NCBI GenBank assembly: GCA_009691765.1
Contig: SIAO01000002.1
Coordinates: forward strand, 154,415 to 218,414
Source of the DNA: Planctomycetota bacterium
GTDB taxonomy: Bacteria > Planctomycetota > GCA-002687715
Direction of reading: 5' to 3'
Length of the DNA: 64,000 nucleotides
Position numbers and translations under genes: made by a program. Under the pieces are notes generated by a model, which searched no databases, was not told where the DNA came from, and saw nothing but the letters and a program-made list of their open reading frames with translations. Numbering within the stretch: the stretch's first letter is position 1; each line of letters opens with the position of its first letter. Positions 2,851 through 37,361 of the stretch are shown piece after piece.

Positions 2851-2905
2851 GTCCTTCCGGGACGGGATGGTCTAATAGTAATGACCCGCCGGATAAACGC
2901 CTTGC

Positions 2906-3337
2906 TCACGGGTGTGTTTGCTGAGAGTTCGAAGCAGCGGCACTGGCGTTGATGTGCTTCACGATCTGCTTGTCTTCGTCGGAGATGTGATGCGCAAGCC
3001 AGTCCGCAAGAAAGACCATCACTACGATCGACAGAGTCATGTTGCCGGCAGCGTGCTTTGCTTCAATGTCTATGACCTTCTTGGTCAGATCGTCGTGAAA
3101 CACTTTGTGGGCGGCATAGCCGGGGAATCAACTTTCTCGCATGCTGGCTTCTTCAGCGCTGAAATGCTCAACAGTGTAGGTGCGCAGAAAGGCAAGCGTC
3201 CTGCCGATCTCCTCGCGGCCTGCGCCGCTTTTCATCGCGTCGTGAAGCTTGTTCACCGCGTCGAAAAGCCCAGCGGGCTGACGGTCGATGACTGCGTGTC
3301 CGACCTTGTAGCGGCCGTCGAATGTGATGAATGACAT
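2906..3337 (-). pseudogene. hemerythrin-like (bacteriohemerythrin) gene interrupted by an in-frame TGA at 3128-3130
   Basis: ORF 3128..3337 (...LHDAMKSGAGREEIGRTLAFLRTYTVEHFSAEEASMRES) and ORF 2906..3103 (FPGYAAHKVFHDDL...VMVFLADWLAHHISDEDKQ) are in frame and together reconstitute a full hemerythrin (HF..EE..M...Y..H...H...FL.DWL.HI). The stop aligns to a non-conserved linker residue and no SECIS-like hairpin follows it. Confidence 0.5.
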
Positions 3338-3531: not shown

Positions 3532-4434
3532 GTGCCTGCAACGGCTTTGGCGAGTAGCAGCCCGCTGACCGATGTCAGTGCGATTGTGGATCCGATTGTC
3601 CTCATTGATCGAGAACATCATGCCCTGCTGCTGCGGTATGCTGGGCGCGTGCAGCAAACGCTATCGCTCTGTTTTTGTGTGATCGCCCTCGTGGCGTGTA
3701 CCGCAGAAGGCACGCGACAGGAAGCGGTGGCAGAGCGGCACGAGGAACGAACCATGACTCCGCCCAGCGCAGCAATCAGTGCGGACAAAATTCCGGTGTT
3801 AGATCGCTCACTTCCGGCAGAGGTGCAAAGCGCCACTTTCGCGATGGGATGATTTTGGGGGCCCGACTCCCGGTTCGGGAGTCTGCAAGGTGTGTTGCGT
3901 ACGCGCGTGGGCTATGCGGGCGGCAGCAGCGCGAATGTGAACTACAACAACATTGGCGATTGGATGGAAGCGATCCAAATCGACTTTGATCCCAAACAGG
4001 TCCACTACAAAGACTTGCTTGAGATCTTCTTCGCCGAGCACGATGCGTGCGACGCACCGTGGAAGCGACAATACGCGTCGGGAATCTTCTTTCACAATGA
4101 AGCTCAGAAGGAAGTTGCGACGCAGGCGCTCGCGGGCTTCGGCACCGCGCAAGGGCGCAAGCCTGTGACAGAGATTGCTCCCGTCGTCTTTGCGACCGCC
4201 GAGGACTATCACCAGAAGTACTACCTGCGTCAGACGCATGCCTTGGCAGCAGACCTTATTGCGGCATTCAACAAGAATGAGCACAATTTCCGCGAATCCA
4301 CCGCTGTGGCGCGTGTGAATGGATATCTCGCCGGAAACGGCGCCGCCACCGACTTAGCCCGTGAACTGAAAGAGCTTGGGCTTTCAGAGGCTGGACAGAA
4401 GTTCTTGACGCTCAGCCACGAACGCAATCGCTGA
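3532..4434 (+). CDS. msrA: peptide methionine sulfoxide reductase MsrA, a selenoprotein with in-frame TGA (Sec) at 3850-3852 in place of the catalytic Cys
   Basis: Track ORFs 3532..3852 (ends ATFAMG-stop) and 3892..4434 (MsrA core VGYAGG...) are in the same frame with a single TGA between them. Reading through gives ATFAMG-U-FWGPDSRFGSLQGVLRTRVGYAGG, versus E. coli MsrA AIFAMG-C-FWGVERLFW...GYTGG. An 8-bp hairpin with a GUU loop sits 12 nt downstream of the TGA. The N-terminus has a lipoprotein-like hydrophobic segment (LSLCFCVIALVAC), which suggests an exported enzyme; an alternative internal GTG start at 3649 is possible. GGAAG lies 5-9 nt upstream of the GTG at 3532. Confidence 0.75.
3865..3883 (+). 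promoter_or_regulatory. putative bacterial SECIS element (stem GACUCCCG/CGGGAGUC, apical loop GUU) directing Sec insertion at the msrA UGA
   Basis: A perfect 8-bp GC-rich inverted repeat gactcccg-gtt-cgggagtc begins 12 nt after the TGA at 3850-3852, with a G/U-containing apical loop, as in bacterial SECIS elements. Confidence 0.55.
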
Positions 4435-19379: not shown

Positions 19380-20402
19380 ATGAGCAACATTGACACAGTG
19401 GGCGACCTCGCAGCGGTTCAAAAACTGAAAGAGGCCTATGCCTCTTTGAAGACCGAAGTGGGGCGTGTGATTGTCGGCCAAGACGCGGTGGTGGATCAGG
19501 TGCTCATGAGCATCTTCGCCCGCGGCCATGGGCTCTTGGTCGGCGTACCCGGCTTGGCCAAGACGCTGTTGGTGAGCACGCTCGCCAAATCGCTCTCGCT
19601 CAGCTTCAACCGCATTCAATTCACTCCAGACTTGATGCCTTCAGACATCACAGGCACTGAAGTCATCCAAGAAGATCGCGCGAGCGGGCAGCGACACTTC
19701 AAGTTCATCCCGGGCCCGGTGTTTGCGCATGTGGTTCTGGCCGACGAAATCAACCGCACGCCTCCGAAGACCCAAGCGGCCCTGCTCGAAGCCATGCAAG
19801 AGCATCAGGTGACGGCCGGTGGACGGCGCCACGCTTTGCCCGCTCCGTTCTTCGTGCTGGCCACGCAAAACCCCATCGAACAAGAAGGCACGTATCCGCT
19901 GCCGGAAGCGCAGCTCGACCGCTTCATGTTCATGATCCGTGTTGATTACCCTAGCGCCGCCGAAGAGCTGAAGATCATTCAAGACACCACCGGCGCGCGC
20001 AGCGTGGAGTTGCGCCAAGTTCTCAACGCCGAAGAAATCCTCGCGCTGCAAGAAACAGTGCGCCGTGTGCCGGTATCCGACCACGTCGTGAACTACGCGC
20101 TCGAATTCGCACGTCGCACGCGTATCACCACGCCCGATGCCGACGACTTCGTGAAGCAGTGGGTGGCTTGGGGTGCTGGTCCGCGCGCCAGTCAGTACTT
20201 GGTGCTCGGAGCCAAGGCCCACGCTGTCTTGCACGGCCGCACTTGGGTGAGCGGCGAAGATGTGCGCGCCGTCGCGCATCCCGTGCTGCGCCACCGCATC
20301 ATCCGCAATTTCCGCGCCGAAGCGGAAGGCATCACCACCGATGGGGTCGTCGATCACCTCATCCGCGAAATCCCGCGCGCCGCCGCAGACCGCAGCGCGT
20401 GA
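19380..20402 (+). CDS. MoxR-like AAA+ ATPase
   Basis: 340-aa ORF with Walker A GVPGLAKT, Walker [10 protein letters not shown], and the MoxR-specific AAA_3 topology. It is the first gene of the Bat-like cluster. Confidence 0.9.
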
Positions 20403-20410
20403 AGCCTGCG

Positions 20411-21310
20411 ATGAGCGAGGACTATCGCAAGTACCTCGATCCGGCCGTGCTCGAAAAAGTGGCCGGGTTGGAGGTGAAAGCACGACTCGTGGTGGAGGGC
20501 TTCATGGCCGGCCGCCATGAATCGCCCTACAAAGGCTCGTCGGTGGAATTCGCGGAGCATCGCGAGTACGCACCCGGCGACGACCTGCGCCGGATCGACT
20601 GGAAGGTGTACGGCAAGTCAGACCGCTTTTATCTGAAAGAGTTTGAAGAAGAGACGAATCTGAAGGCGTACATCGCGGTGGATGCGTCAGCCTCGATGGG
20701 CTACGCCGGCGCGGGCCGTGTCAGCAAGCTCGAATACTCCAAGTACGCAGCCGCCGCCATTTTGCACTTGGTGCATCAACAGCGCGACTCGGGCGCCTTG
20801 GTCGCTTTCGGAAGTGGCATCAGCACATTCGTGCCGCCGGGCAGCAGCAGCGCGCATCACAGAAACCTCATCGAGAATCTCTCGGGGTTGAAAGCCGAAG
20901 GACCGAGCGGCATCGGGCCCGTGTTCGATGAAATCGCTTCACGCTTGCGGCAGCGTTCCCTTGTCGCAGTGTTCTCAGATTTGCTCGACGACGAAGCCTC
21001 CGTGCTGCGCGGGTTGCAACACATGGCGCATCGCGGCCACGATGTCATCCTCTTTCACGTGATGGACTCTGATGAACTCAATTTCCCTTTCGAACGGATG
21101 TCGCGCTTCGAAGGGCTCGAAGACATGGAGCGTTTGCTGCTCGATCCGAAAGCCGTGCGCGAGGCCTATCTCGCTGAAGTCAACAGTTTCCGTGCGCGAC
21201 TGACGGCCACGTGCCTCGCAGGCCGCATGGACTTCGTGGCGCTGGACACTTCCGCGCCGCTCGACAAAGCGCTTGGGACATGGCTCGCCCGACGCTCGGG
21301 GACCCGCTGA
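20411..21310 (+). CDS. DUF58 domain protein (MoxR partner, BatII-like)
   Basis: ORF 20159..21310 trimmed to MSEDYRKYLDP. It has the DUF58 blocks (SPYKGSSVEFAEHREYAPGDDLRRIDWKVY) and a degenerate VWA-like fold (IAVDASASM). Confidence 0.8.
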   Translation: MSEDYRKYLDPAVLEKVAGLEVKARLVVEGFMAGRHESPYKGSSVEFAEHREYAPGDDLRRIDWKVYGKSDRFYLKEFEEETNLKAYIAVDASASMGYAGAGRVSKLEYSKYAAAAILHLVHQQRDSGALVAFGSGISTFVPPGSSSAHHRNLIENLSGLKAEGPSGIGPVFDEIASRLRQRSLVAVFSDLLDDEASVLRGLQHMAHRGHDVILFHVMDSDELNFPFERMSRFEGLEDMERLLLDPKAVREAYLAEVNSFRARLTATCLAGRMDFVALDTSAPLDKALGTWLARRSGTR

Positions 21311-21311
21311 C

Positions 21312-23522
21312 ATGGGCTCCTTCTTTGGCGCACCGGCAATGTTGTGGTGGGGCCTCGCGGCTTCCGTGCCCATTCTCATCCATCTTTTCTCGCGCCAGCG
21401 CTATCAGAAGCTGCCGTGGGCCGCGATGGAGTTCTTGCGCCGTGCCTTCAAGAAGACGCGGCGGCGCGTGCGCCTCGAGCATCTGCTGATCCTGCTCTTG
21501 CGCGTGTTAGCGCTGCTGCTGTTGGCGCTGGCTTTGGCGGAACCACTCCGCGATGTGGCCAGCCTCCTTGGAGGCGAACGGCGCGAACTGGTTTTGATCT
21601 TGGACGACAGCTTCTCCATGGCTGTTGAAGAGCCCGACGGATCTACGCCGTTCACGCGCGCGCGTGCGAAAGCCGTAGCGCTCGTCAACGAACTTCGTGG
21701 CGACCGAGGCGACAGCGTCAGCGTGCTGCTCGCGGGGCGTCCCGTGCGCTTGCTGCGCAAGGCCAGTGCTGAACTCGACAAGAGCGCCGCAGAACTTGGC
21801 AGGCTCGAAGTGAGCGACCTCGCCACAGATCTCGGCGGAGCACTCTCCACCGCCTCTGCTCTGCTCGAATCACTGCCTGAAGGCGTAGAAGTCGTGGTGC
21901 TCTCGGATGTGCAGAAGACCGCCTTCGGTGACAGCACCTCAGAAGCGGTGGCGCGCGACTTGGCGCTCGCGGCACGCGCGATCACAGCGCGCAAAGGCAC
22001 GCTGCGTTTCGTTCTGCCTCGCACAGGCAACAGCGACAACCTCGCACTGACCGCGCTGGAATGCCGCGAACGCAGTGTCATCGCGGGACGCGCGGCGCGC
22101 ATGGTGGCCACGCTCACGAACTACTCCGACAAGCCGCAATCAGGCACGGTGCGCTTTCACGCCGACGGCGCCACCGAGCCTTTTGAATCTCGCGAGATCG
22201 AAGCGCTGCGGCCCGGTGCTTCAGAAAGCGTGGACGCGCGTGTGATGTTCAGCGCGGCGGGCAGCCATGTCGTAGAAGCACATTTCGCAACCGACGCACT
22301 CGCGCCAGACAATCGTCGCGCGCTCGCACTCGATGTTCGCAGCGACATCCGCGTGCGCATCGTGGATGGCGAACCTTCTGCAGAGGCCGGCGAAGAAGAG
22401 TCGTTCTTCCTTGCTGCGGCTCTCGACCCCGGCATCGAAGGTGTGCGCTCCCCCTTCGAAGTGCAGGTGTTGGACGAAGGACGCTTTGAACAAACCGCGC
22501 TCAAGGGCGTGGACATCGTCGTTCTCATGAACACGAGCACGCTCTCGCCGCGCAAGGCCGAAGATCTGCGCAACTTCGTGACGGCTGGTGGCGCACTGTG
22601 GGTTTTCCCGGGTGATCGCACGCAACCCGAAACTCTGAACACGCTCTTATTCCAAGAAGGCAACGGACCTTTGCCCGCCGCCATCGCAGGACCTACCTTG
22701 GTTGCGCCGACAGACTCCAGTTTCCGTTTGAGTGGGCCCGATCCGATGCCGTCAGAGCTCGCCTACTTTGCCGACAAAGATGTGGCCTCATGGCTCGGGC
22801 GCGCGCCGATTCACAAGCACTGGCGCCTCGAAGCGCCCAAAGCCCCAAGACAGCAACGCGTTCTTCTCAACCTCGCTCCTCAAGATGGCAGCATTGCGGC
22901 GCAACCCGCACTCGTGGTGAATCGCTTCGGAGCGGGTCGTACTGCGTTGTTCGCTTTCAGTGGCGATCAAGAGTGGAGCGATCTGCCTGCCTTCCCCACC
23001 TTTGTGCTGCTCGCTCGCGAAATGGCTTGGTGGCTGAGCGAACATGTTTCCAGTGGCGACAACTTGTTGGCTGGCAGTTCGTGGCGGTACTCACTGCGTG
23101 GTCGCGTGAAGGAAGCGCTCTTGGCTCATGAAGGCGGCACGGCTGTGGTGTTGCGCCCACTGCGCCATGAAGGCGCTCAGCATGAAGAACTGCAAAGCGA
23201 CACTCTGCTGCGCGCGCGGCTCTGGCGCGCCGATCTCATCCCGCACCCGGGTGAGACTCTCGAAGACACGTCTCCACGCTGGGTCGCGGTGAATGTGGAT
23301 TGCAGCGAATCCGATTTGCACCGCGCCGATGAAGCCTGGCTCCGCACCGTGTTCGGCGTAGAAACCCAATTCGAGAGCGAGGGGCGTGAGCCAGAAACGG
23401 TGACACGCGCTTCCGCCGCAGAACATGCGTGGTGGTGGCTGCTGTTCGGCGCACTGCTCGCACTCTTGGCAGAAACGGCTTTGTCGCAATGGTTCGGCGC
23501 ACGCGCGGAGGCCAAGGCATGA
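21312..23522 (+). CDS. BatA-like VWA protein with N-terminal double-transmembrane anchor (TIGR02226-type)
   Basis: Trimmed to MGSFFGAPAMLWWGLAASVPILIHLF...LLILLLRVLALLLLALALAEP, the BatA/two_anch N-terminus. A VWA MIDAS motif (LILDDSFSM) follows it. Overlaps the DUF58 stop. Confidence 0.75.
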   Translation: MGSFFGAPAMLWWGLAASVPILIHLFSRQRYQKLPWAAMEFLRRAFKKTRRRVRLEHLLILLLRVLALLLLALALAEPLRDVASLLGGERRELVLILDDSFSMAVEEPDGSTPFTRARAKAVALVNELRGDRGDSVSVLLAGRPVRLLRKASAELDKSAAELGRLEVSDLATDLGGALSTASALLESLPEGVEVVVLSDVQKTAFGDSTSEAVARDLALAARAITARKGTLRFVLPRTGNSDNLALTALECRERSVIAGRAARMVATLTNYSDKPQSGTVRFHADGATEPFESREIEALRPGASESVDARVMFSAAGSHVVEAHFATDALAPDNRRALALDVRSDIRVRIVDGEPSAEAGEEESFFLAAALDPGIEGVRSPFEVQVLDEGRFEQTALKGVDIVVLMNTSTLSPRKAEDLRNFVTAGGALWVFPGDRTQPETLNTLLFQEGNGPLPAAIAGPTLVAPTDSSFRLSGPDPMPSELAYFADKDVASWLGRAPIHKHWRLEAPKAPRQQRVLLNLAPQDGSIAAQPALVVNRFGAGRTALFAFSGDQEWSDLPAFPTFVLLAREMAWWLSEHVSSGDNLLAGSSWRYSLRGRVKEALLAHEGGTAVVLRPLRHEGAQHEELQSDTLLRARLWRADLIPHPGETLEDTSPRWVAVNVDCSESDLHRADEAWLRTVFGVETQFESEGREPETVTRASAAEHAWWWLLFGALLALLAETALSQWFGARAEAKA

Positions 23523-25900
23523 ACCCCGCCGAGCGTGAAACTGCTGGCTTCGTGCTGCTCGGCGCCCCTGCTGCATGGGTGATCGTGCTGCTGATCGTTC
23601 CAGCTTTGATCGGCTTCACAGCGCTTTTCTATCGCCTCGGACGTGACCCTTCGCGCAAAGCTCGCTTGTTCCTTGCCAGCTTGCGCGCAGTCGTGGTGCT
23701 GGTTTTGGCTGCGCTATTGATGGACCCCGCATTCGAATCGCAAATCGTCGAACGCAAACCTGTGTTGACCGTCGTGCTCGCAGATTCCAGCGCTTCCATG
23801 CGCACCAAAGACGACTACGCGCAAGTTCCAAACTTAGCGAGCGCAGTGCGCGCAGCAGCATCCCTCGACGCAACAACGCCCTTGGGCGGTGTAGAGCGCA
23901 TCGAGCTCGCACGGCGCGTCCTCGATGACGGTAGTGAGAAGAGTTTCTTGAAGGAGCTGGCGAAGAAACATCCGCTGAAACTCTTGGGCTTCGGCGAACG
24001 CGTCACGCCCGCAACCAGCTTTGCCAGCTTGCAAGCAGACGAACGCGCCACAGCGATTGGTCTCGCGCTGCAACGCACCTTCGACGACCCGGAAGTGAAG
24101 AGCAGCCCGGTCGGGAGCATCGTGCTCATCAGCGATGGTCGCAACACAGCGGGCCCCTTACCGACGGACTTTGTGGAGCTCGCACGCAATCGGCGCATTC
24201 CGATCCACTGCGTGGGTGTCGGCGACCCTTCCGCGCTGCGCAATCTCAAGATCGTCAGTGTGCTTGCCCCGGCGGTGGCGCTGCTGCAAGACAGTGTGGT
24301 CATCGAAACGCGCGTGCGCCAACGCGGGTTAGACGGCGCCGCGGCCACACTGCGTCTGCTCGTCGATGGCAATGTGGTTGAACAGAAAGAGTTCAGCTTC
24401 GGCGACGCGGACCAAGACCAAGTAGTGCGCTTGATGCACAGGCCGACGCGTGTGGGCCAGCAAGAATGGGTGCTGGAGCTGGTGCCACAGCCGGGCGAAG
24501 CCGACACTGCCGACAACCGCCGCACTGTGCCCATCTTGGTGAAAGACGAACGCATCAAAGTCTTGTATGTCGAAACCTATCCGCGCTGGGAGTACGCCAC
24601 GCTGAAAGATTTCCTCACCCGTGGCGAAGATGCATTCGAAACACACTGCCACCTCATCGATGCCGACCGCGGCTTCCCGCAAGAGTCTTCGGCGCGTTTA
24701 CCACCACTGCGCGAACTGCCAGAAGCACCCGAGGATTTGTTCAGCTACGACGTGATCATCTTTGGTGATGTCGACCCCGAGGGCCTTGGCCACGGCGACC
24801 CCGAGCGCGCGCGTCGTTTCCAACAGAATCTGCGCACCTTCGTCGAACAAGGCGGCGGCTTCATCATGCTGAGTGGCGAGCGTTTCTCGCCTGGCGCATG
24901 GAAAGACACGCCCATCGCCGAAGTGCTGCCCATCATCATCGACCCCTCGGAAGTCAGCGCATCCAGCGGTGATTCCGGTTTCCATCTGCGTCTCACAGAA
25001 CTCGGACGCGAGCATCCTGTGATGCAGATCGTCGAAGACCCGCTGCGCAACCGCACTATCTGGGAAGGTGGCGACGACCCGCTGGCACTCGCGCCGCTGT
25101 GGTGGTTCGCCGCGGTGAAGAAAACGAAACCGGGCGCGATGGCGCTGGCGCTGCACTCCAGCGCTTCCAACTTGCACGGGCCCCATGTGTTGATCGCCAC
25201 GGGCACCTATGGCGAAGGCCCAGTGATCTTCTCAGCGCTCGATGAAATGTGGCGTTGGTACCGCGATCAAGGCCCCTTCTCGCATCATCGCTTCTTCGGC
25301 AACCTCGTGCGCCACGCTGCGCGCACGCGCCTGCTCGCAGGCGACAAACGCTTCCGCTTGAACGCCGATCGCAGTGAAGTTGAACAAGGCGCGCGCCTGA
25401 GCCTCGCCGCCTCTGTCAAAGACCACGCCTTCTTGCCCGCGACCAGAGAAACTCAAGAAGTTGTGCTGCGCGAGCCCACAGGGCGCGAACGCCGCGAGCT
25501 CTTGCACCGCGTAGAAAACGGCAAGTACGAACGCGCTTTCACTGTGGGTGAACTCGGAGAATGGAGCGCGTGGCTGCCGAGCGAAGACGGATTGAGTGAC
25601 GAGCGCATTGCGCCCCTCACATTCCGTGTGGTGCTCGCTGACGCTGAGCAGCGCGAACCCGTCATGGATGAGCAGCAACTGCGTGCGTTAGCCAGTGCCA
25701 CCGGCGGGCGCTACGTCGGCCTCGAAGGAGCACGCGAACTCTTGAGCAGCGCGGCCTCGGGCACGGTGGAAATCCCAAGGCAGCGCCGCGTGTTGCGTTT
25801 GCGCGACAGTGACAGCCCTTGGCTGCACTGGATTCCGGCCATTCTTGTGACGCTCCTCGGTATTGAGTGGATGGTGCGCAAACGCCATAGACTCATCTAA
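23519..25900 (+). CDS. second BatA-like paralog: two-TM N-terminal anchor + VWA domain + C-terminal TM helix
   Basis: Trimmed to MNPAERETAGFVLLGAPAAWVIVLLIVPALIGF.... It has a VWA MIDAS motif VVLADSSASM and a C-terminal WLHWIPAILVTLLGIEWMV anchor. ATG overlaps the upstream stop (ATGA). Confidence 0.7.
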   Translation: MNPAERETAGFVLLGAPAAWVIVLLIVPALIGFTALFYRLGRDPSRKARLFLASLRAVVVLVLAALLMDPAFESQIVERKPVLTVVLADSSASMRTKDDYAQVPNLASAVRAAASLDATTPLGGVERIELARRVLDDGSEKSFLKELAKKHPLKLLGFGERVTPATSFASLQADERATAIGLALQRTFDDPEVKSSPVGSIVLISDGRNTAGPLPTDFVELARNRRIPIHCVGVGDPSALRNLKIVSVLAPAVALLQDSVVIETRVRQRGLDGAAATLRLLVDGNVVEQKEFSFGDADQDQVVRLMHRPTRVGQQEWVLELVPQPGEADTADNRRTVPILVKDERIKVLYVETYPRWEYATLKDFLTRGEDAFETHCHLIDADRGFPQESSARLPPLRELPEAPEDLFSYDVIIFGDVDPEGLGHGDPERARRFQQNLRTFVEQGGGFIMLSGERFSPGAWKDTPIAEVLPIIIDPSEVSASSGDSGFHLRLTELGREHPVMQIVEDPLRNRTIWEGGDDPLALAPLWWFAAVKKTKPGAMALALHSSASNLHGPHVLIATGTYGEGPVIFSALDEMWRWYRDQGPFSHHRFFGNLVRHAARTRLLAGDKRFRLNADRSEVEQGARLSLAASVKDHAFLPATRETQEVVLREPTGRERRELLHRVENGKYERAFTVGELGEWSAWLPSEDGLSDERIAPLTFRVVLADAEQREPVMDEQQLRALASATGGRYVGLEGARELLSSAASGTVEIPRQRRVLRLRDSDSPWLHWIPAILVTLLGIEWMVRKRHRLI

Positions 25901-25905
25901 CTGTC

Positions 25906-28900
25906 ATGCGCCACGCGCTGTTGCTGCTGTTCTTCGCAAGCTGCCTCGCAGCTCAGAGTCTCTCCACCGCGCAAGCCACGGTGCCTGATGATCCGGTCGT
26001 GCAGCAATTGCTGTTGAAGGCCGATGAGGCGCTCGCACAGCAAGACTTGAATCGCGCGCTCGCACACTGGCAAGACATTCTTGACCGCCTCGGTTCCAAG
26101 GTGATTCAGGTAACGAAGGGCGAGCGCAGTCAGCACCCGACCGATCCCACAGTGGCGGGCGATCTCTTTCGCGGCGTGCGTGGCCATGTGATGGAACGCT
26201 TGCGCCAGTTGAACGCAGAACAGTTCGCCGTATACGTGCAGAAAATGGAACCCAAGGCGCGTGAACTGCTGCAACGCGGTATCGCAGCCTTCGACGAAGC
26301 AGCGTTGCGCGATGCAGCTTCGCGCTGGTTGCTCACACCGTCAGGACAAGCCGCTGCCTTCACGCTGCTCGATTTGCTGCTCGAACAAGGGCGTTTCGAT
26401 GAAGCGCTGTTGCAAGCGCAGCGCTTGGAAGTGGATCTGCGCACTTTCGGCGCAAGCGTCGCGACGCAACTGAATGCCACCGCACGCATGGCGCTGGCAC
26501 TGCGCGGGCTCGGACGCCGCGCTGCGTTAGAGGAACTGGTTGTCCGCTTCAGCGGCGCAGAGCAGGCTCAAGCGCTGCAAGTGCTGGGGAAGTCGCTCCC
26601 TGCCGCGGACTGGTTTCTCTCCCTCAGCCAAGAGCTTCCGCCAAGCGCTCCAACAGCAACCATCGCGTTCCCGCCTCTCGACGTCGTGCGGCGGCGCATG
26701 TGGGCCACCGAGTATCAGCGGAACAATGAAGCCCGCGAGCTGTTCGTGTTCGATGAACGCGAAGTGAACGCGCGCGTAGGTTGGTTCCCCGTCATGCCTA
26801 GCGTGCAGGGCGCTTCGGTGTACTGGAGCGACGGACTCACCCTGACGTGCGGCTCAATGTTCACGGGCACGGAACTCTGGCCCGCAGTGCATGGCCCGCA
26901 AAACCGCCACGCTGGACGCCGCAATCGCAATCTCTTGTTCCGCGTTGTGGTGGATGGTGATCTTGCCGTCGCGAGCCTCGAAGGTCCGCCATCGTCCAAA
27001 GCACAACGTGCATGGCAAGGCTTCGAGACCATTGAAGCCATTCCCAATCGCAAACTCGTGGCGGTGGATTCCGCAACGGGCGTGCAGCGTTGGAGTCACC
27101 ACACACCCGGCGAGATGCCGCGTGAAGACCGCGATTTCTTGCGCCGCCTCAGCATCGTGCAGCCTCCGGTCGCGCGAGGCAACACGTTTTATGCCACAGG
27201 CACTGTGCTGCTCGGTGTGTTCCATCACTGGGCCTTGGCCATCAACCGCAACACGGGCGCACTACTGTGGCGCACATACCTCGGCGCGGGCCAACTCGAA
27301 CTGAACATGTTTGGCAATCCTGTGAAAGAGGCTGTGCCGCTGCCTCTCACAGAAGCCGACGGCGTGCTTTATTGCTGCACCAACATGGGCGTATTCTGCG
27401 CTGTCGACGCGCTCACCGGGACGCTGCTTTGGGCGAGCACCTATGCACAAGAGGGCATTCCTGGAACCGATTCGCCTGTCACTTACGAGCGCCATCCTGG
27501 TTGGGTGCCTGCCGCTCCAGTCGTGCACGGTTCGCGCGTCTATGCCGCACCGCTCGATGCGTTGACCGTAGTGGCCTTCGAGCGCGACAACGGCAAGGTG
27601 CAAGCCTTTCCCGCGACGCGCCGCACGCTGGCGAATCCCAACACTTGGTTTCTTGGTTTGCACCGTGGCGCACTCTTGGTGGCCGGCAATGTCATCAGCG
27701 CAGTCGATCCCGATTCAGGCGCGCTACGCTGGCGCAGTGTGGAAATCCCGGCGCGCTCTGGACGAGCTGTGTTTGAGGGCTTCCCCAGCGTCGTCGGTGA
27801 CAGCGTGTGGGCCGCCATCGCCGATCCGCGCACGCGTGGCAGCGCCATTCATCGCTACGCCCTCGACGGTGGCGCATTGCTCGAACAAAACGAAGCACGC
27901 GATCAGTCACTGCTCGGCAATCTTGTGGTGACGCCAGAAGCCTTGATCATCGCCAGCGAAGACAGCGTCGCTGTGTGCTTCGACCGCGAGGAAGTGGAAG
28001 CGCGATTAATGCGCGAAGCGCGTTCAGCAGGGGCCAGCTCTGCCACGCATCTGCGTCTCGGCGAACTCCTCTCGCGCAAACCTGATCACATCGGCGCCAT
28101 CGCCGCTTTCGAAGCCGCCCTCGCCGCTGCCGAACGCAGCGCCGATGCTGCCGCGCGCGCCGCGGCCAAACATGCGCTCTTTGAAGCTTGGCTGAACGCC
28201 GCCACAGCGCGCCGTGACTTGCCCACGGGCATCACGCCTGAAGTCTGTTTCGAGCGTGCGCTTGGCCATGCGACGGATGCACGCGCGAAAGCCCGCGTGC
28301 TGTTGGCCGCTCTCGATGCAGCGCTGCGCGATCAAAACCATCAAGCCGCCATCCAGCAGTGCGACGCGATCCTTGCAAGTGTTGCTGACGAACCCGCCAC
28401 TCCACTCGGACGCTTGGTCGAACTCCTCGGCCGAGATTCCCCTGATGTGGCTGTTCCAGCAGGGCTGCTTGCTGCACTCGCTGCCGCGCGAGTGACTGAG
28501 ACCGCTGGCGACACACGCATGGCCGCACGCCGCTGGCAAAATGTGCGCGAACGCTATGGCCGTCAGTTTTTGAACGGCGAAACGGTGCGCTCGGTGGCTT
28601 CGCGCGCCTTGCAAGCACTGCTCACGCTCGCTGGCCGCGCTGCCTACACAGAAGTCGAGGAACAAGCCCAGAAGCGTTTTGCAGCGGCATCAGCCGCGCA
28701 AGACGAGCAAGGACTGCGCACCGTCGTCGAGAACTGGCCAGAGTCTGCAGTGGCACTCGAAGCTCACGCGGCTCTTGTGAAGCTGTTGATACAGCACGGG
28801 AAATCCGTCGAAGCCGTCTTGGAATTGCAGCACCAATTCCGCGATCGCGGCAACGCGCCTGTTGCTCAAGTGGCGCTCTACGCCGAGCTCTTGGGCTCGC

Positions 28901-30285
28901 TCGAGCTTCCTGACAGCGCGCGCGAAGTGGCGCAACGTCTCGCATGCTTTGGCAACGCCGATGTGGGAGGCCGCAGCGCAACGCAAGCCGCACAACCATT
29001 CCTCACGCCAGCCGCACCCGTCAGCACTGCAAGTGGCATCGTGCCCGACAATCTGCAAACGGCGTGGCGCTACGGCAGTGCCGCCGCAGACACGCCAGCG
29101 GCAGTACTGATTCCCGCAGGAGCCCCGCTCCCAGCACACATGGTGCTCGGTTACGTGGACGAGTCCTTGGTCGCATTGAATGTTGAAGATGGCTCCGTGC
29201 TTTGGGCGCGGCCGATGCAGGAATTGCAATCACCGCTCCATGCCGCCGACGGACGCTTGCTGCTACATCACGACGGGTTGCTCGCTTGCTTAGATCTGCG
29301 CAGTGGCCGCGAACTCTGGCGCGCGGTGGGCGAACAGTTTCAATTCTTGGCCGCAGCAACTCATGAAGGGCTGGTCTTGGCACTCGCTCGCACTCTCGAC
29401 CGCGGAGCAGCGTTGCGCTTGCTCAGTTACGACTGGATCAGTGGTCAGTTGGTGCATTCTGTGCCTGCGAGCGATGTCGATCGCGGTGGTTTGCAGTTCA
29501 ACGCTGGCATGGTGCTCGTCATCACGGACGGCCCCGAAGGGAGCCGCGTCTTTGATGTGCTCTCCCTCGCGCCAGTCGGCGGAGCGGCCCCAAGCACGCA
29601 CGAAAGTGCCGCACCTTTCCTCAGCAACGCTGGGCTGCTCATCACCTTTACAAGCGAGCGGCAACGGACGGCCGCCGCGCTCACCATCCGCGCCAAGGAC
29701 CCGCACACAGGCGCCGAGATCTGGAAGCACGAGCCCGGCAGCGGCCACTGCGCGACCACAGGTTCGGACGGCCGCTATCTCGCCTATCAATTCAGTCCTG
29801 CGCGTGGCAGCCAAGGCCGCCGCTTGACGGTGCTGGACTTGAAGGACGGCACCAGTTGCGTTTCTGCAGCTCTCGAACGCAACGAAATCGTGGTTGGCGC
29901 TTCGGTGTTTGTCGGACAACGCATGTATCAACCACAGCGCCTTGTGTTCACCGCTGGCACTGGCCTCGCCGAGCGCGTGAAGGCGTACGACTTGGACACC
30001 GGGGCTTCGCCTTGGTCCAGCGCAGATTTCACCGGCCCAAACCTCTCCCTCCGCGTCTTGCCTTTGGCCGATGTGGTGTTGCTGCGCAAGAGCGTGGCTG
30101 GCGGACGCGGTTTGCGCACGCCCGCTTCCACCCTGTACGGCATCGATCCGATCAGCGGGGCGGTGACAGGCGTCACGGAACTGGGCAGCATCGCGAATTG
30201 GAGCCAAGACGTAGGACTCACGGCATGCGGACGCACCCTCGTGGCCACCGCCGGCGCTCAGCTCATTGCGCTGCGCGCACCATAA
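25906..30285 (+). CDS. giant secreted protein (1459 aa): N-terminal TPR-like helical region + multiple PQQ-type beta-propeller repeats
   Basis: Signal peptide MRHALLLLFFASCLAAQSL. Repeated GxLxWR/GxxxW blades (GVQRWSH, GALLWRTYLG, GTLLWAST, GALRWRSV, GSVLWARP, GRELWRAV, GAEIWKHE) resemble BamB/PQQ-repeat propellers. Confidence 0.7.
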   Translation: MRHALLLLFFASCLAAQSLSTAQATVPDDPVVQQLLLKADEALAQQDLNRALAHWQDILDRLGSKVIQVTKGERSQHPTDPTVAGDLFRGVRGHVMERLRQLNAEQFAVYVQKMEPKARELLQRGIAAFDEAALRDAASRWLLTPSGQAAAFTLLDLLLEQGRFDEALLQAQRLEVDLRTFGASVATQLNATARMALALRGLGRRAALEELVVRFSGAEQAQALQVLGKSLPAADWFLSLSQELPPSAPTATIAFPPLDVVRRRMWATEYQRNNEARELFVFDEREVNARVGWFPVMPSVQGASVYWSDGLTLTCGSMFTGTELWPAVHGPQNRHAGRRNRNLLFRVVVDGDLAVASLEGPPSSKAQRAWQGFETIEAIPNRKLVAVDSATGVQRWSHHTPGEMPREDRDFLRRLSIVQPPVARGNTFYATGTVLLGVFHHWALAINRNTGALLWRTYLGAGQLELNMFGNPVKEAVPLPLTEADGVLYCCTNMGVFCAVDALTGTLLWASTYAQEGIPGTDSPVTYERHPGWVPAAPVVHGSRVYAAPLDALTVVAFERDNGKVQAFPATRRTLANPNTWFLGLHRGALLVAGNVISAVDPDSGALRWRSVEIPARSGRAVFEGFPSVVGDSVWAAIADPRTRGSAIHRYALDGGALLEQNEARDQSLLGNLVVTPEALIIASEDSVAVCFDREEVEARLMREARSAGASSATHLRLGELLSRKPDHIGAIAAFEAALAAAERSADAAARAAAKHALFEAWLNAATARRDLPTGITPEVCFERALGHATDARAKARVLLAALDAALRDQNHQAAIQQCDAILASVADEPATPLGRLVELLGRDSPDVAVPAGLLAALAAARVTETAGDTRMAARRWQNVRERYGRQFLNGETVRSVASRALQALLTLAGRAAYTEVEEQAQKRFAAASAAQDEQGLRTVVENWPESAVALEAHAALVKLLIQHGKSVEAVLELQHQFRDRGNAPVAQVALYAELLGSLELPDSAREVAQRLACFGNADVGGRSATQAAQPFLTPAAPVSTASGIVPDNLQTAWRYGSAAADTPAAVLIPAGAPLPAHMVLGYVDESLVALNVEDGSVLWARPMQELQSPLHAADGRLLLHHDGLLACLDLRSGRELWRAVGEQFQFLAAATHEGLVLALARTLDRGAALRLLSYDWISGQLVHSVPASDVDRGGLQFNAGMVLVITDGPEGSRVFDVLSLAPVGGAAPSTHESAAPFLSNAGLLITFTSERQRTAAALTIRAKDPHTGAEIWKHEPGSGHCATTGSDGRYLAYQFSPARGSQGRRLTVLDLKDGTSCVSAALERNEIVVGASVFVGQRMYQPQRLVFTAGTGLAERVKAYDLDTGASPWSSADFTGPNLSLRVLPLADVVLLRKSVAGGRGLRTPASTLYGIDPISGAVTGVTELGSIANWSQDVGLTACGRTLVATAGAQLIALRAP

Positions 30286-30340: not shown

Positions 30341-31528
30341 ATGTTTATGCCCTCAAAACGTTTTTTCAATGTTGGTTGGGTTGCTGCTGCGTTCCTGCTC
30401 GGAGCCAGTGGACTGGCTTTCACCTACCGCGCCACGGATGTTGCGCCGAGCACGAGCAGCAACACCGCAAACGCGCACTCGGCACTGCCGACATCTGGGC
30501 CACGCACCAAGACCGCCGACCCCGAACGCGTGCGCCGCGCCGTCGACAAAGGCCTCACATGGCTACGCCGTGCGCAAGACAAAACTACAGGCGCGTGGGT
30601 AGAAAACATTGGCTACAAACTGAACTCTGAGTTTGTGGTCACCGAAGCCAGCAAGCCGCACGTTGGAGTCACTTCCCTCGCGCTCATGGCGTTCCTCTCC
30701 GGAGGTCACTTGCCAGGCCGCGGGCAATACGCAGATGTCGTCGAGCGCGGCATCGACTTCGTGCTCTCCAGCGTCGACGCTGAGACGGGCTACATCAGTC
30801 GTGACGGTACGCGCATGTACAGCCACGCTTTCGCCACACTGCTGTTGGCGGAGGTCTACGGCATGACTCACCGCGAAGACTTGAAAGAGAAGTTGCAGCG
30901 CGCGGTGGATGTGACCGTGAAGTCGCAGAACTCCCACGGAAGCTGGCGCTACTTGCTCTACTCCAGCGAATCGGACATGAGCATCACCGTATGCCAAATC
31001 ATGGCGTTGCGTGCCGCGCGCAACAAAGGCATCCGCGTGCCCAAGACTGTGATCGACCGTGCCTACGACTATGTCGTGCGCAGTGCCTACAAAAACCCCG
31101 CCTCACCGGAGTACGGCGGCTTCAAGTATCAAGAGAAGGACCGCTCGCGCACGTCGTTTGCACTGACCAGCGCGGGTGTCGCCACGCTGTACCACTCTGG
31201 AGTCTATGAGCATCAGCTCATCCAAGCAGGGCTGCAATATCTGCGCAACGAAATCGCCGAAGTCAGCCGCCACTACGGTGGGCGCCAAGGCCACTACTTT
31301 TATTGGTACGGGCACTACTACGCTTGCCAAGTGTTCTTCATGGCAGGCAACGACAATGCGGATCTGTGGCAGTTTTATTGGGACCGCATGAGCCGAGAAT
31401 TGCCGGACAACCAAGAAGCCGATGGCTCGTGGAACAACCTCGTCGGGCCCGGGCCCGCGTTCTCCACCGCTGTGGCCAGCATCATTTTGCAGATCCCCAA
31501 CCAATACCTACCCATTTTGCACCGCTAG
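30341..31528 (+). CDS. secreted prenyltransferase/squalene-oxidase-repeat (alpha/alpha toroid, terpene-cyclase-like) protein
   Basis: Trimmed to MFMPSKRFFNVGWVAAAFLLGASGLAF, a signal/anchor sequence. It has repeated G-W and aromatic-rich helical hairpins (TGAWVE, HGSWRYLLYS, DGSWNNLVGPGP) typical of PF00432/PF13243 repeats. Confidence 0.6.
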   Translation: MFMPSKRFFNVGWVAAAFLLGASGLAFTYRATDVAPSTSSNTANAHSALPTSGPRTKTADPERVRRAVDKGLTWLRRAQDKTTGAWVENIGYKLNSEFVVTEASKPHVGVTSLALMAFLSGGHLPGRGQYADVVERGIDFVLSSVDAETGYISRDGTRMYSHAFATLLLAEVYGMTHREDLKEKLQRAVDVTVKSQNSHGSWRYLLYSSESDMSITVCQIMALRAARNKGIRVPKTVIDRAYDYVVRSAYKNPASPEYGGFKYQEKDRSRTSFALTSAGVATLYHSGVYEHQLIQAGLQYLRNEIAEVSRHYGGRQGHYFYWYGHYYACQVFFMAGNDNADLWQFYWDRMSRELPDNQEADGSWNNLVGPGPAFSTAVASIILQIPNQYLPILHR

Positions 31529-31571
31529 CTGCGCGGCGGGAACTTTCCTTCGCGCCGTACGACCAAACACC

Positions 31572-33884
31572 ATGAGCCCACTTGCCACCGTTGTCGCTCG
31601 CCTGCACAGCCTTGGCCGACGGCGCACTCTCGCCGTGGCGCTGCGCGGTGCGACTGGCCCCATGGCGGCCGCTGCTGGGCTGGCCGTCACAGGCTTGCTC
31701 TTGGATTGGTGGTTGCATTTGCCCGTGGCAGTGCGCGCCATCCATCTCGCGGCCTCTGTCGCTTTCGTGGGCGTGCTGTGTTGGCGTCAGCTTGTGAAAC
31801 CACTCTCGCGGCGCCCAGGGCTCGAGCAGCTCGCGCTGCTCGCAGAAGCGTCCGATCCGCGGCTCGGCGATCAGCTCATCTCGGCGTTGCAACTTGAACG
31901 CGACTTGAACGCCGGCGTCGCGGTGGAATCCCCAGAGCTCATTCACGCCCTTGTGGCCGATAGCGCGCAACGGTTCAGCACAGAGACTTTCCGCAATGCA
32001 GCACCGCTCGCACCGGCCTTCGGCGCTTTGTGCTTGGGGTTGCTCGCTTGCTGTGTGCCCGCAGGCATCGCCGCAGCCGACAGCGAAATCGCTTCCATCT
32101 GGCTTCAACGCTCGTTGTTGCTCCGCGAAGTCCCTTGGCCTCGCATGCACTATCTTGTGGTGGAAATCTCTGACGCCGCCGAGATGAGCCGCGAGATGCA
32201 GGGCGACAATTTCGTTTTCCATGTAGCGGAACGCACACCTCTGCAAGTGAATGTGAGCGCCGAGCCGGGCACCAAACTCCCCGACTCCGTCAACATGCTG
32301 GTGACGCCGATAGGTGACACAAGCGATGCGCGCGAAATACCGCTTGGGCGTTCACCCTCAGGCGCGTTCCAACACATCTTTCCGCCGTTGATGGCGTCGT
32401 TCTCCTTCTCGGTGAGCGGCGGCGATGACGACGACGGATTGCCGCTGTACGAAATCCGCGTGGCTCGCGCACCGCGTGTCACAGCCTTCAGTGCGCATTA
32501 CGAGTATCCGAGCTACACCGGCATGCAGCCTCGGGACCTCCCCGACGCGAACATCTCTGCACCCGAAGGCACGCGCATCACGCTGCATTTCACGGTGAAC
32601 ATGGGGCTCACGGCATTTCGTCTGAACTTCGAGAAGGCGGGTGCTGCCGAGCCGACGCTGCAACCCGACGGCACTTGGAACCACACTTTCACAGTCAGCG
32701 CTTCGGATGTCTGGAGCTGGAAGTTGCAAGGCGAAAACGGCGTGGCTTCTACTGCGGTGCCGCGCTACGTCGTCACCTGCGAAAACGACCAGCCACCGCA
32801 CCTCGCGCTAGAGCTGCCGGGCAGCACGACTCTCTTGGTCACTCCGCAAGCCGTCATCCCTTTCAAAGGTGTCGCAAGCGACGACTTCGGTGTCACCGAA
32901 CTCGGCCTGCGCTATGGCACAGATCCGAAAGTGCTGGGGCTCAGTGTGCCTTTCAATGCAACGGATCTCGCGACGCCCTTGGGAGGCCGCACGGTTCCAT
33001 TTTTCCGTGCTCAGCCCGTGGCAGCGTTGCGGCTGGCTGCAGAAAGCGCGACCGAAGCCATGCCCTCGCGCCCCGAACGTGCACCCGGCGATGGCGAGCG
33101 TTTCGCAATGCGTCTCGCGGTCGCCGACAACCGCGTCACAGCGACGCAGCCCGAACCGCACCGCATTCTGTCCGAACAAGAGTTTCGCGTGCAAGTCATC
33201 TCTCCTCAGGAACTGCAAAAGGAGTTTTCGCAGCGTCAGGTGCGCCTGCGCGATCGCGCTGCGGACATCACCACACTGCTCGATCAGCGCATCGCCGAAA
33301 CCAGCGACTTGATTGCGGTGCTGCGCGCCTCGAGCGATCAGCCTCCGGGTGAACCGCGTTTCGTTGCTCTCGAACAAGGCGTAGTGCGCATTCAGGGCGA
33401 ATTGGGTTCGCTGTCGCGCCAGTTTCAGCGCATCGCTGATGGCTATTTGTGGAATCGCCTCGACCACGGCTTTCTCACGGAAAAGCTGATGGAAGTGCTC
33501 GGTGCCGGATTCCTTGCGCACCCCGAACAAGAATCGAGCGCCGCTTGGGCGCAGGCTTTGAAAGACGTACGCCCCGCCATCGACGAAGCCACCCTGATGG
33601 GCCGCGTGGCTGCCATTCTGCAACTGGCGCTGAACACAGCCTTGGAGCTTGCGCCTGCTGCCACGAAACAGTTCGCCGTGGTGAACGCCACGCCCATGCC
33701 AGCGCGTCTTGCACCGCTCGAAACCGTCCTGCCGCTGTTGCAAAAACTCCGCGACGGAGTGGCCGCGCTCACTGAGCGGCTGGAGTCGTGGGAAAACTAT
33801 CTCGACGTCATCCAGGGCTTTCGCGAGCTGCTGGATCTTGAAAAAGGTGTGGAGCACAAGCTCCGCAAAGTGACCAACAAGTGA
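31572..33884 (+). CDS. large membrane-anchored protein (two N-terminal TM helices + ~700-aa extracytoplasmic domain), DUF4175-like candidate
   Basis: Trimmed to MSPLATVVARL.... It has two hydrophobic helices (AAAAGLAVTGLLLDWWL; AIHLAASVAFVGVLCW) followed by a long soluble domain. The family name is uncertain without a search. Confidence 0.55.
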   Translation: MSPLATVVARLHSLGRRRTLAVALRGATGPMAAAAGLAVTGLLLDWWLHLPVAVRAIHLAASVAFVGVLCWRQLVKPLSRRPGLEQLALLAEASDPRLGDQLISALQLERDLNAGVAVESPELIHALVADSAQRFSTETFRNAAPLAPAFGALCLGLLACCVPAGIAAADSEIASIWLQRSLLLREVPWPRMHYLVVEISDAAEMSREMQGDNFVFHVAERTPLQVNVSAEPGTKLPDSVNMLVTPIGDTSDAREIPLGRSPSGAFQHIFPPLMASFSFSVSGGDDDDGLPLYEIRVARAPRVTAFSAHYEYPSYTGMQPRDLPDANISAPEGTRITLHFTVNMGLTAFRLNFEKAGAAEPTLQPDGTWNHTFTVSASDVWSWKLQGENGVASTAVPRYVVTCENDQPPHLALELPGSTTLLVTPQAVIPFKGVASDDFGVTELGLRYGTDPKVLGLSVPFNATDLATPLGGRTVPFFRAQPVAALRLAAESATEAMPSRPERAPGDGERFAMRLAVADNRVTATQPEPHRILSEQEFRVQVISPQELQKEFSQRQVRLRDRAADITTLLDQRIAETSDLIAVLRASSDQPPGEPRFVALEQGVVRIQGELGSLSRQFQRIADGYLWNRLDHGFLTEKLMEVLGAGFLAHPEQESSAAWAQALKDVRPAIDEATLMGRVAAILQLALNTALELAPAATKQFAVVNATPMPARLAPLETVLPLLQKLRDGVAALTERLESWENYLDVIQGFRELLDLEKGVEHKLRKVTNK

Positions 33885-33894
33885 GGAGGCTCTC

Positions 33895-36708: not shown

Positions 36709-37361
36709 AAGCGCTGTCTCTGCTCGCTGCGAGTGTGTTGCTGCTCCCGACGCTTGTCGCACAAGAACCGGAAACGCCTGCCACAGATCCGGGTGAATTG
36801 CTGCGCCAGATTCAGCGCAACATGCAAGCTGTCGAGAAGGGCCTCGATGAACTGGCCACGGAGGAAGCCGGTGCTGCTGGCCGCCGCACAGTGGAATCCA
36901 TCAATCGCGCCATCGAAGAGATGAAGAAGAACGGCCAGCAGGTCACCAAAGACATCGACGAGATCATCAAGCAGATGAAGAGCTCGGGCGGTGGAGGCGG
37001 TGGTGGCGGCGGGCAAAGTGGCGGCAAAGGCGGAGAGAAAAGCAGAAACAGTGGCAAAGAACGCGGCAGCGCCAAAGACCGCAACAAGCCCGAGCCCGGG
37101 CAAGAAGATGGCGAAGGCAAGCAGTCGAAAGGTGGTGGCAAGGAGGACAACACCTCCCCCGATCAGCCGGGTGGGCGCAACGAAAACGGCCCGGGGCGCC
37201 CAGAAGATCCGCGCGAGCGCTTCCGCCAAGAACTTCTCGAAGGCCGCTGGGGCGTGTTGCCTCCGGAGCTGCGCCAGCGCCTGATCGAGCGCAACTTCCG
37301 CGAGTTCACGCCCGAGTATCAAGAAGAATTGCGCGCCTACTTCCGCCGCCTCGCGCGCTAG
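36705..37361 (+). CDS. small secreted Gly/Lys/Glu-rich protein, last gene of the cluster
   Basis: Signal peptide MKALSLLAASVLLLPTLVAQ. It has a poly-Gly tract (SSGGGGGGGGGQSGGKGG) and a conserved-looking C-terminus (FRQELLEGRWGVLPPELRQRLIERNFREFTPEYQEELRAYFRRL). ATG overlaps the upstream stop. Confidence 0.55.
   Translation: MKALSLLAASVLLLPTLVAQEPETPATDPGELLRQIQRNMQAVEKGLDELATEEAGAAGRRTVESINRAIEEMKKNGQQVTKDIDEIIKQMKSSGGGGGGGGGQSGGKGGEKSRNSGKERGSAKDRNKPEPGQEDGEGKQSKGGGKEDNTSPDQPGGRNENGPGRPEDPRERFRQELLEGRWGVLPPELRQRLIERNFREFTPEYQEELRAYFRRLAR

Follow-up and report, generated by a model that had tools for sequence, protein, structure and literature searches.

The DNA analyzed here, a 64,000-nucleotide (nt) stretch of contig SIAO01000002.1 (assembly GCA_009691765.1) from a Planctomycetota bacterium, is referred to in its full length as the window. 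It contains a candidate selenoprotein gene, msrA, which would encode a peptide-methionine (S)-S-oxide reductase (MsrA) with selenocysteine (Sec) at the catalytic position. On the forward strand, two open reading frames (ORFs), 3532..3852 and 3892..4434, lie in a common frame and are interrupted by one TGA at 3850-3852. The frame and the position of this codon, which the initial annotation had described as a single in-frame TGA splitting the two ORFs, were verified. Translation through the TGA gives ...LPAEVQSATFAMG-U-FWGPDSRFGSLQGVLRTRVGYAGG..., with SATFAMG before U. The gene probably starts at GTG 3649; the orthologs begin with an ATG directly ahead of the hydrophobic segment. The expectation that gene callers would fragment such a gene was borne out, the NCBI annotation being MSR74242.1 ('[Planctomycetes bacterium]'), a fragment of 183 amino acids (aa), and Prodigal-type calling yielding two pieces of 106 aa and 180 aa. 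TGA is the stop codon of 31 of the 35 Pfam-supported genes in the window, msrA included (TAA and TAG terminate 2 each), and recoding of the UGA must therefore depend on local context. The coordinates of the features are given in Table 1.

Table 1. Features of the msrA locus and of the rest of the window (L numbers are genome loci of relatives)
Feature	Position	Strand	Details
msrA coding sequence, read through the UGA	3649..4434	+	261 codons from GTG 3649; stop TGA 4432-4434
Alternative in-frame msrA starts	GTG 3586, GTG 3532	+	
Predicted lipoprotein signal peptide, MQQTLSLCFCVIALVA followed by C	3649..3699	+	lipobox L-V-A-C, PROSITE-type core
Codon TGT of the predicted lipidated Cys17	3697-3699	+	
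PMSR catalytic domain	3832..4239	+	residues 62-197 of the 261-aa precursor; PF01625, 4.8e-36
UGA at the catalytic position of the G-U-FWG motif, predicted to be read as Sec	3850..3852	+	kept in L001-L010 and in 80/80 genome loci
SECIS-like hairpin, 8-bp stem GACUCCCG/CGGGAGUC, apical loop GUU	3865..3883	+	folding, frozen synonymous sites, covariation
Cys134 codon TGC, motif H-D-A-C	4048..4050	+	no other Cys in the mature protein except the lipidated one; candidate resolving residue
Predicted C-terminal helical domain, CoMsrA type	4240..4431	+	4LWJ/4U66 alignment reaches chain residue 195-196
Hemerythrin-like gene	2903-3337	-	divergent from msrA, 190 nt upstream; in-frame TGA 3130-3128
MoxR AAA ATPase, DUF58 and BatA/VWA series (Bat-like aerotolerance operon)	within 19380-30285	+	
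823-aa ORF, then 1,459-aa PQQ/BamB-like beta-propeller protein	within 19380-30285	+	no Pfam match for the 823-aa ORF
FAD-linked oxidase, FAD_binding_4 and 4Fe-4S/CCG genes, GlcD/GlcE/GlcF-like (glycolate oxidase)	59840-63734	+	

The identity of the read-through product was assessed with profile and structure-database searches. With U replaced by C, the product matched Pfam PF01625 (PMSR) with 124.7 bits (E=4.8e-36, cutoff 23.7) over positions 2-149 of 153, which is nearly the complete model. In the search of PDB sequences, the residue encoded by the TGA (Sec68 of the precursor) paired with residue 16 of 4LWJ, 4U66 and 7C13, and by the offset of the reported alignment ranges it corresponds to Cys51 of Escherichia coli MsrA 1FF3; the initial claim that the TGA falls exactly on the catalytic Cys of MsrA was thus confirmed. 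The best PDB match (E=4e-44) was the MsrA of Clostridium (Alkaliphilus) oremlandii OhILAs, CoMsrA (PDB 4LWJ-4LWM, 4U66, 7C13 and 4W8C), with an alignment of about 188 residues that extends over the catalytic domain as well as the helical domain, an unusual feature, at the C-terminus. CoMsrA is a natural selenoprotein with Sec16, and 4LWJ and 4U66 are its Sec-to-Cys forms (PMC4333827, PMC4479559). The window enzyme would carry Sec at the same site of G-U-FWGPD, and it keeps the active-site Tyr, Glu and Gln-Tyr and the YHQKYY block: the equivalents of the active-site residues listed for CoMsrA (Tyr47, Glu55, Gln89, Tyr90, His137 and Tyr140; PMC4333827) are identical in the window protein and invariant in 83 family members. 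In the CoMsrA family, as at this locus, the UGA is followed by a hairpin within the coding region.

The window MsrA also departs from CoMsrA in several respects. CoMsrA has no signal peptide and no Cys (1-Cys type), and it is reduced by glutaredoxin and not by thioredoxin (PMC4479559), whereas the window protein has an N-terminal extension of about 50 residues with a lipobox and an extra Cys in the motif HDAC. It also has lineage-specific substitutions, common to the four Isosphaeraceae-type orthologs, at sites that hardly vary in the other family members: GDH is changed to GDW (His in 76/83 of the family), P-T-Y to V-N-Y (Pro in 79/83), FW to FF (Trp in 75/83) and HDP-T to HDA-C. The Cys of the HDAC column occurs in 13 of the 83 family members, all four planctomycete lineages among them; it lies two residues past an Asp that lines the substrate site in MsrA structures. 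The match to Pfam PF20939, which bears the name 'Selenoprotein MsrA helical domain', stayed below threshold (13.1 bits, cutoff 23.7), and with 99.7 bits against a cutoff of 108.1 this divergent sequence falls just under the curated naming threshold of the NCBIfam equivalog-domain TIGR00401, a cutoff that marks the use of a name and no defining biochemical feature. Because Cys134 is present, the enzyme is not of the 1-Cys type; it is therefore a variant within the CoMsrA family, and its membership of the fold family stands.

The window MsrA also gave a match, over residues 57-203, to profile positions 143-256 of 287 of NCBIfam NF041383, 'VPGUxxT family thioredoxin-like (seleno)protein, type 2'. 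The match of the C-terminal part of this profile to the MsrA domain implies that a thioredoxin-like selenoprotein is fused to such an MsrA elsewhere, which is a possible hint to the natural reductant.

The conservation of the TGA was examined among close and distant relatives. The five best protein-database matches (P0001-P0005; 63-99% identical) are all fragments of 180-189 residues that begin just past the TGA. At the genome level, four syntenic planctomycete lineages (L001-3, L004-7, L008-9 and L010; 63-69% identical) keep the TGA and share the gene order SSF transporter, msrA, DUF1761, dapD-dapA-dapB-lysC-asd. L010, a metagenome-assembled genome (MAG) labelled Singulisphaera sp., is among them, with neighbour identities of 72-87% and the TGA likewise in place. 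Upstream of the TGA, the frames of the orthologs continue through LPAEV(Q/R)SATFAMG and include a signal peptide of the lipoprotein type. When the window is compared with these orthologs, the proportion of synonymous differences (pS) is about 0.7, which is saturated, and that of nonsynonymous differences (pN) is 0.17-0.26 on either side of the TGA; purifying selection thus acts on the two halves as a single frame.

A scan with the C-terminal 193 residues as the query, covering one genome per species for 185,579 species, returned at least 561 relatives, and a TGA precedes FWG in 80/80 of the best loci. These 80 loci belong to Planctomycetota, Dehalococcoidales, Anaerolineae, deltaproteobacterial lineages, Nitrospirota, Synergistaceae, Acidobacteriota, Bacillota and others. 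The Sec-MsrA family has been known since 2006-2009, and crystal structures are available. Selenoprotein MsrA, with a GUFWG/H motif, is on a list of bacterial selenoproteins that experiments have verified (PMC13188914), and a 2016 survey of >5,200 genomes found Sec-MsrA in only 18 organisms (PMC5029168, S3 Table). The rarity of Sec-MsrA suggested in the initial annotation, which noted its description in only a few bacteria and in Chlamydomonas, did not hold in view of the spread of the TGA-bearing relatives over many phyla, and the window MsrA is an additional member of a known, widespread selenoprotein family of the CoMsrA type. Another planctomycete, P1 from Porphyra, has a Sec-MsrA candidate that is split by an in-frame UGA and for which a SECIS (selenocysteine insertion sequence) was reported (PMC4807772, S9 Table); compared by its description only, it represents a different lineage outside the Isosphaeraceae.

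Cys forms bearing the FWGPDSRFG motif exist as well (P0007, P0012-P0014). In addition, the JGI metagenome proteins P0006, P0008 and P0034 read GWFWGPDSRFG, with W at the catalytic TGA, which is a gene-caller artefact of another code table. Judging from these 'W' proteins and from the truncated calls, Sec-MsrAs thus hide in the databases as fragments and 'W' variants. Three further arrangements were observed among the relatives: an MsrB-(Sec)MsrA fusion in L025 (upstream of 1179); a conserved domain of no identified family (YDVGKAALEGLHGVKKV...TVTFDP...) fused directly upstream of MsrA in L040, L067 and L071; and a second, Cys-type exported MsrA-MsrB gene immediately 3' of the Sec-MsrA gene in L023 (8918-10063).

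Downstream of the UGA, the stem-loop GACUCCCG-gtt-CGGGAGUC begins 12 nt 3' of the TGA. The perfect 8-base-pair (bp) hairpin is present as the initial annotation described it, although only its inner 6 bp are conserved in the family: the common core is 3867-3881 (columns 18-23 with 27-32), closed by GUU, and the outer two pairs are formed in only about 58% of the sequences. This comparison was made on an ungapped alignment, A1, of 83 sequences comprising the TGA and 51 nt. In A1, the third codon positions within the hairpin (columns 21, 24, 27 and 30) are 95-100% conserved, and at those flanking it (columns 12, 15, 36, 39, 42, 45 etc.) all four bases occur. Likewise, pS is 0.21-0.53 over the 13 codons past the TGA, compared with about 0.7 elsewhere. 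Compensatory double changes were found at three stem pairs (16 cells), a value matched by 0/500 shuffles, and shifted registers of the stem gave poorer covariation scores. Pairing is kept even where the protein changes, as in PDSRFGS to PDARFGH (S..S to A..H), which is brought about by UC..GA to GU..AC. The covariation and the constrained synonymous sites establish that the hairpin is under selection as an RNA structure.

The E. coli system requires a spacing of about 11 nt between UGA and SECIS, which the 12-nt spacer of the window resembles. Bacterial SECIS elements are stem-loops that lie within the coding sequence, immediately past the UGA, and their apical loop is small and contains G (PMC1088965). 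In its position, its small loop and the G of that loop, the window hairpin is like the bacterial SECIS of the E. coli fdhF type and the consensus of Zhang and Gladyshev; it differs in that the stem is perfect, with no bulged U, and in that the loop has only 3 nt (GUU), which become 5 nt when the G-C pair that closes it opens. The search against Rfam found no family at the gathering threshold in the window and nothing meaningful around the UGA.

The N-terminus of the precursor, ...SLCFCVIALVA-C-TAEG, combines an uncharged hydrophobic region with a lipobox (PROSITE PS51257-type), and the orthologs have the signal peptides MRRALALLVSLAAC, MRRAFIFVLVLAAC and MQRRTLISLGLLFALCAC, with the lipoboxes LLVSLAA-C, FVLVLAA-C and LLFALCA-C. 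A lipobox is thus found in all four planctomycete lineages, in agreement with the earlier suggestion that the segment LVAC directs export. Because its precursor carries this predicted lipoprotein signal peptide, the window Sec-MsrA most likely undergoes export and lipidation at Cys17 and is held by its lipid anchor in the periplasm of an Isosphaeraceae-type planctomycete. Of the N-termini in the family set of 83, 28 contain a lipobox and 46 another hydrophobic segment (74 in total); 9 have neither, and 3 of these 9 have another domain fused upstream. The N-terminal hydrophobic segment is also present in Cys-form homologs, and the subfamily includes MsrB-MsrA fusions that have lipoboxes and are exported (P0013 and L025). 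The literature searched yielded no description of an exported Sec-MsrA.

As a predicted extracytoplasmic Msr tethered to lipid or membrane, the window protein resembles PilB/MsrAB of Neisseria, the periplasmic MsrAB of Haemophilus influenzae and MsrAB2 of Streptococcus pneumoniae (with the Etrx lipoproteins and CcdA). Exported MsrA and MsrAB enzymes repair envelope proteins (PMC9404787, PMC3914529, PMC6372556). Their nucleophile is Cys, most of them are fusions with MsrB, some also with a thioredoxin domain, and their identified electron donors are encoded nearby, whereas the window enzyme would use a Sec nucleophile and consists of MsrA only, and no donor gene was found among its neighbours.

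Several observations weigh against the interpretation of msrA as the gene of an exported selenoprotein. The folding analysis of the sequence downstream of the TGA, which had been proposed with the initial annotation, does give the stem, but the z-score for 3850-3900 was only -1.03, with 31/200 shuffles as stable at 61% GC, and is not significant alone; the isolated 29-mer reached a z-score of -2.39 (2/200 shuffles as stable). The single sequence is thus only weakly above chance, and the significance of the hairpin comes from the comparison across relatives. The genes for Sec decoding (selA, selB, selD and tRNA-Sec) were not found in the 64-kb window or in any fetched locus: ARAGORN predicted no tRNA for the window, SelA, SelB and SelD domains were absent from about 45 window ORFs scanned with Pfam, and tblastn with E. 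coli SelA, SelB and SelD (approximate queries) had no match in the window or in 89 loci. Furthermore, the related Singulisphaera acidiphila was one of the genomes of a previous study, which does not include it in the planctomycetes that it names as having the full set of Sec-insertion genes (PMC4807772). As to export, the n-region has no K or R when counted from GTG 3649, with the Cys at position 17, and the start codon is uncertain; from GTG 3586 an Arg is present in the n-region, and the Cys is residue 38. In the orthologs the n-region is MRR and the Cys is residue 14 (PROSITE-type range 15-35). The HDAC column is Thr in most family members, and among the ORFs within 5 kb of msrA at 76 loci there was no recurrent thioredoxin-like or DsbD/CcdA neighbour, the only recurrent neighbours being further Msr genes and generic two-component regulators.

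Given that the sel genes were not found in the window or the fetched loci, Sec decoding by the host is inferred from the evolutionary signature of the gene rather than shown. Its synteny with L010 and the cluster member MSR74242.1 assign the window to the Planctomycetota, close to the Isosphaeraceae. Full selA/B/C/D sets are present in Isosphaera pallida and Gemmata obscuriglobus (PMC4807772, S8 Table; PMC5029168, S2 Table), and the omission of S. acidiphila from the organisms with such a set implies that the trait is patchy in the Isosphaeraceae. A window-wide listing of same-frame ORF pairs split by TGA, made for a second selenoprotein gene, was too noisy at 61% GC.

Three other explanations of the TGA were considered. 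The codon could be a nonsense mutation and the two ORFs the decaying remnants of a pseudogene, as the splitting of msrA by gene callers and the adjoining hemerythrin-like gene, which resembles a TGA-interrupted pseudogene and indicates that decay occurs at this locus, would suggest. A decaying gene, however, is hard to reconcile with an intact frame and full-length ORF, with a TGA retained in four lineages whose synonymous sites are saturated while pN stays far under pS on both sides, with a TGA at the exact catalytic codon in 80/80 distant relatives, or with the conserved, covarying hairpin 3' of it; we regard this explanation as extremely improbable. A sequencing or assembly error that hides a true TGC or TGT is a general possibility with any metagenome-derived sequence, but the TGA recurs in assemblies that were made independently of one another, in several runs and projects (Logan SRR8561390, SRR8561391 and SRR12053441; ENA; JGI; NCBI MAGs), which leaves practically no room for such an error. 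Lastly, the UGA might be read through independently of selenium, as Cys or Trp, by a near-cognate or a mis-acylated tRNA-Sec, giving a Cys-form or an inactive product. That no genes of the Sec machinery were found in the window or the fetched loci would allow for this, and so would the W at this codon in P0006, P0008 and P0034, were it not a code-table artefact. However, UGA is the main stop codon in the window, an enzyme with Trp as its catalytic residue would have no activity, and the hairpin has a position and a small, G-containing loop typical of a SECIS (PMC1088965) and is under selection. Moreover, the homologous C. oremlandii enzyme contains Sec and is 20-fold more active than its Cys form (PMC4479559). 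Selenium-independent read-through is consequently very unlikely. We conclude that the locus is, with high probability, one gene, msrA, encoding a peptide-methionine (S)-S-oxide reductase with a Sec nucleophile, inserted under the direction of the hairpin, and with export as a lipoprotein.

The location of the product could be disputed independently of the TGA. If the hydrophobic stretch were no cleaved lipoprotein signal, the Sec-MsrA would be cytoplasmic or anchored facing inward, which would agree with the cytoplasmic location of its homolog CoMsrA and its reduction by glutaredoxin (PMC4479559), with the ambiguous start codon and n-region of the window msrA, and with the lack of a periplasmic reductant gene near msrA at the loci searched. 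Against it stand the canonical MRR-hydrophobic-LAAC signal peptides of the orthologs, the clear lipobox in 28/83 relatives with a hydrophobic N-terminal segment in 46 more, and the exported, lipobox-bearing MsrB-MsrA fusions of the subfamily (P0013; L025). On balance, we consider an intracellular Sec-MsrA unlikely and prefer the periplasmic lipoprotein. Given that 74/83 members from many phyla have an N-terminal lipobox or hydrophobic segment, the whole Sec-MsrA subfamily may be mainly extracytoplasmic, in contrast to the cytoplasmic, glutaredoxin-dependent CoMsrA, and the Cys of the window clade (HDAC) could let periplasmic thioredoxin-like proteins recycle the enzyme; this broader proposal is put forward tentatively.

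Considering the known mechanism of bacterial Sec insertion, the hairpin at 3865-3883, with its GUU loop, would bind SelB-GTP-Sec-tRNA(Sec) during translation, so that the ribosome would insert Sec at 3850-3852 rather than terminate, UGA being the usual stop elsewhere in the genome. The precursor would then be exported by the general secretion (Sec) pathway, lipidated on Cys17 and held in the periplasm, as its sequence suggests, where the enzyme would repair Met-S-sulfoxide in envelope proteins. By homology to CoMsrA, Sec68 would attack the sulfoxide and be converted to the selenenic acid. More speculatively, the selenenic acid might be resolved by Cys134 of HDAC to a selenenylsulfide, or directly by an external thiol, and a periplasmic thioredoxin-like protein supplied by DsbD/CcdA might then reduce the enzyme. 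The role of Cys134 as the resolving residue is speculative.

The msrA gene of the window and hundreds of its MAG relatives are miscalled: they appear as fragments or as pairs of ORFs, or their catalytic residue is given as W. Inventories of the selenoproteome and of oxidative repair in planctomycetes and anaerobes consequently count too few. The locus predicts that its host decodes Sec and probably places a selenoenzyme in the periplasm. If the export is real, it raises the questions of which reductant acts on a selenenic acid or selenenylsulfide in the periplasm and of why Sec is favoured there. Should the family be mainly extracytoplasmic, the periplasm of planctomycetes and of many anaerobes would house a repair of methionine sulfoxide that depends on selenium, and in the window clade a selenenylsulfide between Sec and the acquired Cys of HDAC could make a 1-Cys enzyme recyclable by thioredoxin-like proteins of the periplasm.

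The hemerythrin-like gene next to msrA was considered as a second recoded gene and rejected. Its read-through translation is ...HFSAEEASMRES, the stop, and then FPGYAAHKVFH...; the TGA aligns to a Gly of the Methylococcus capsulatus bacteriohemerythrin 4XPX, Pro replaces the conserved His in the iron ligand motif D-x-x-H, and the TGA is not followed by a strong hairpin. The orthologous loci are without this gene, which is most likely a pseudogene and not a second selenoprotein gene.

In the rest of the window, scans with E. coli-type consensus sequences gave no promoters or terminators, and several large ORFs at 31422-37361 had no Pfam match. In the glycolate-oxidase-like cluster, the ORFs 59840-61297 and 61078-62511 overlap by about 220 nt, and the start of the second is therefore probably further downstream.

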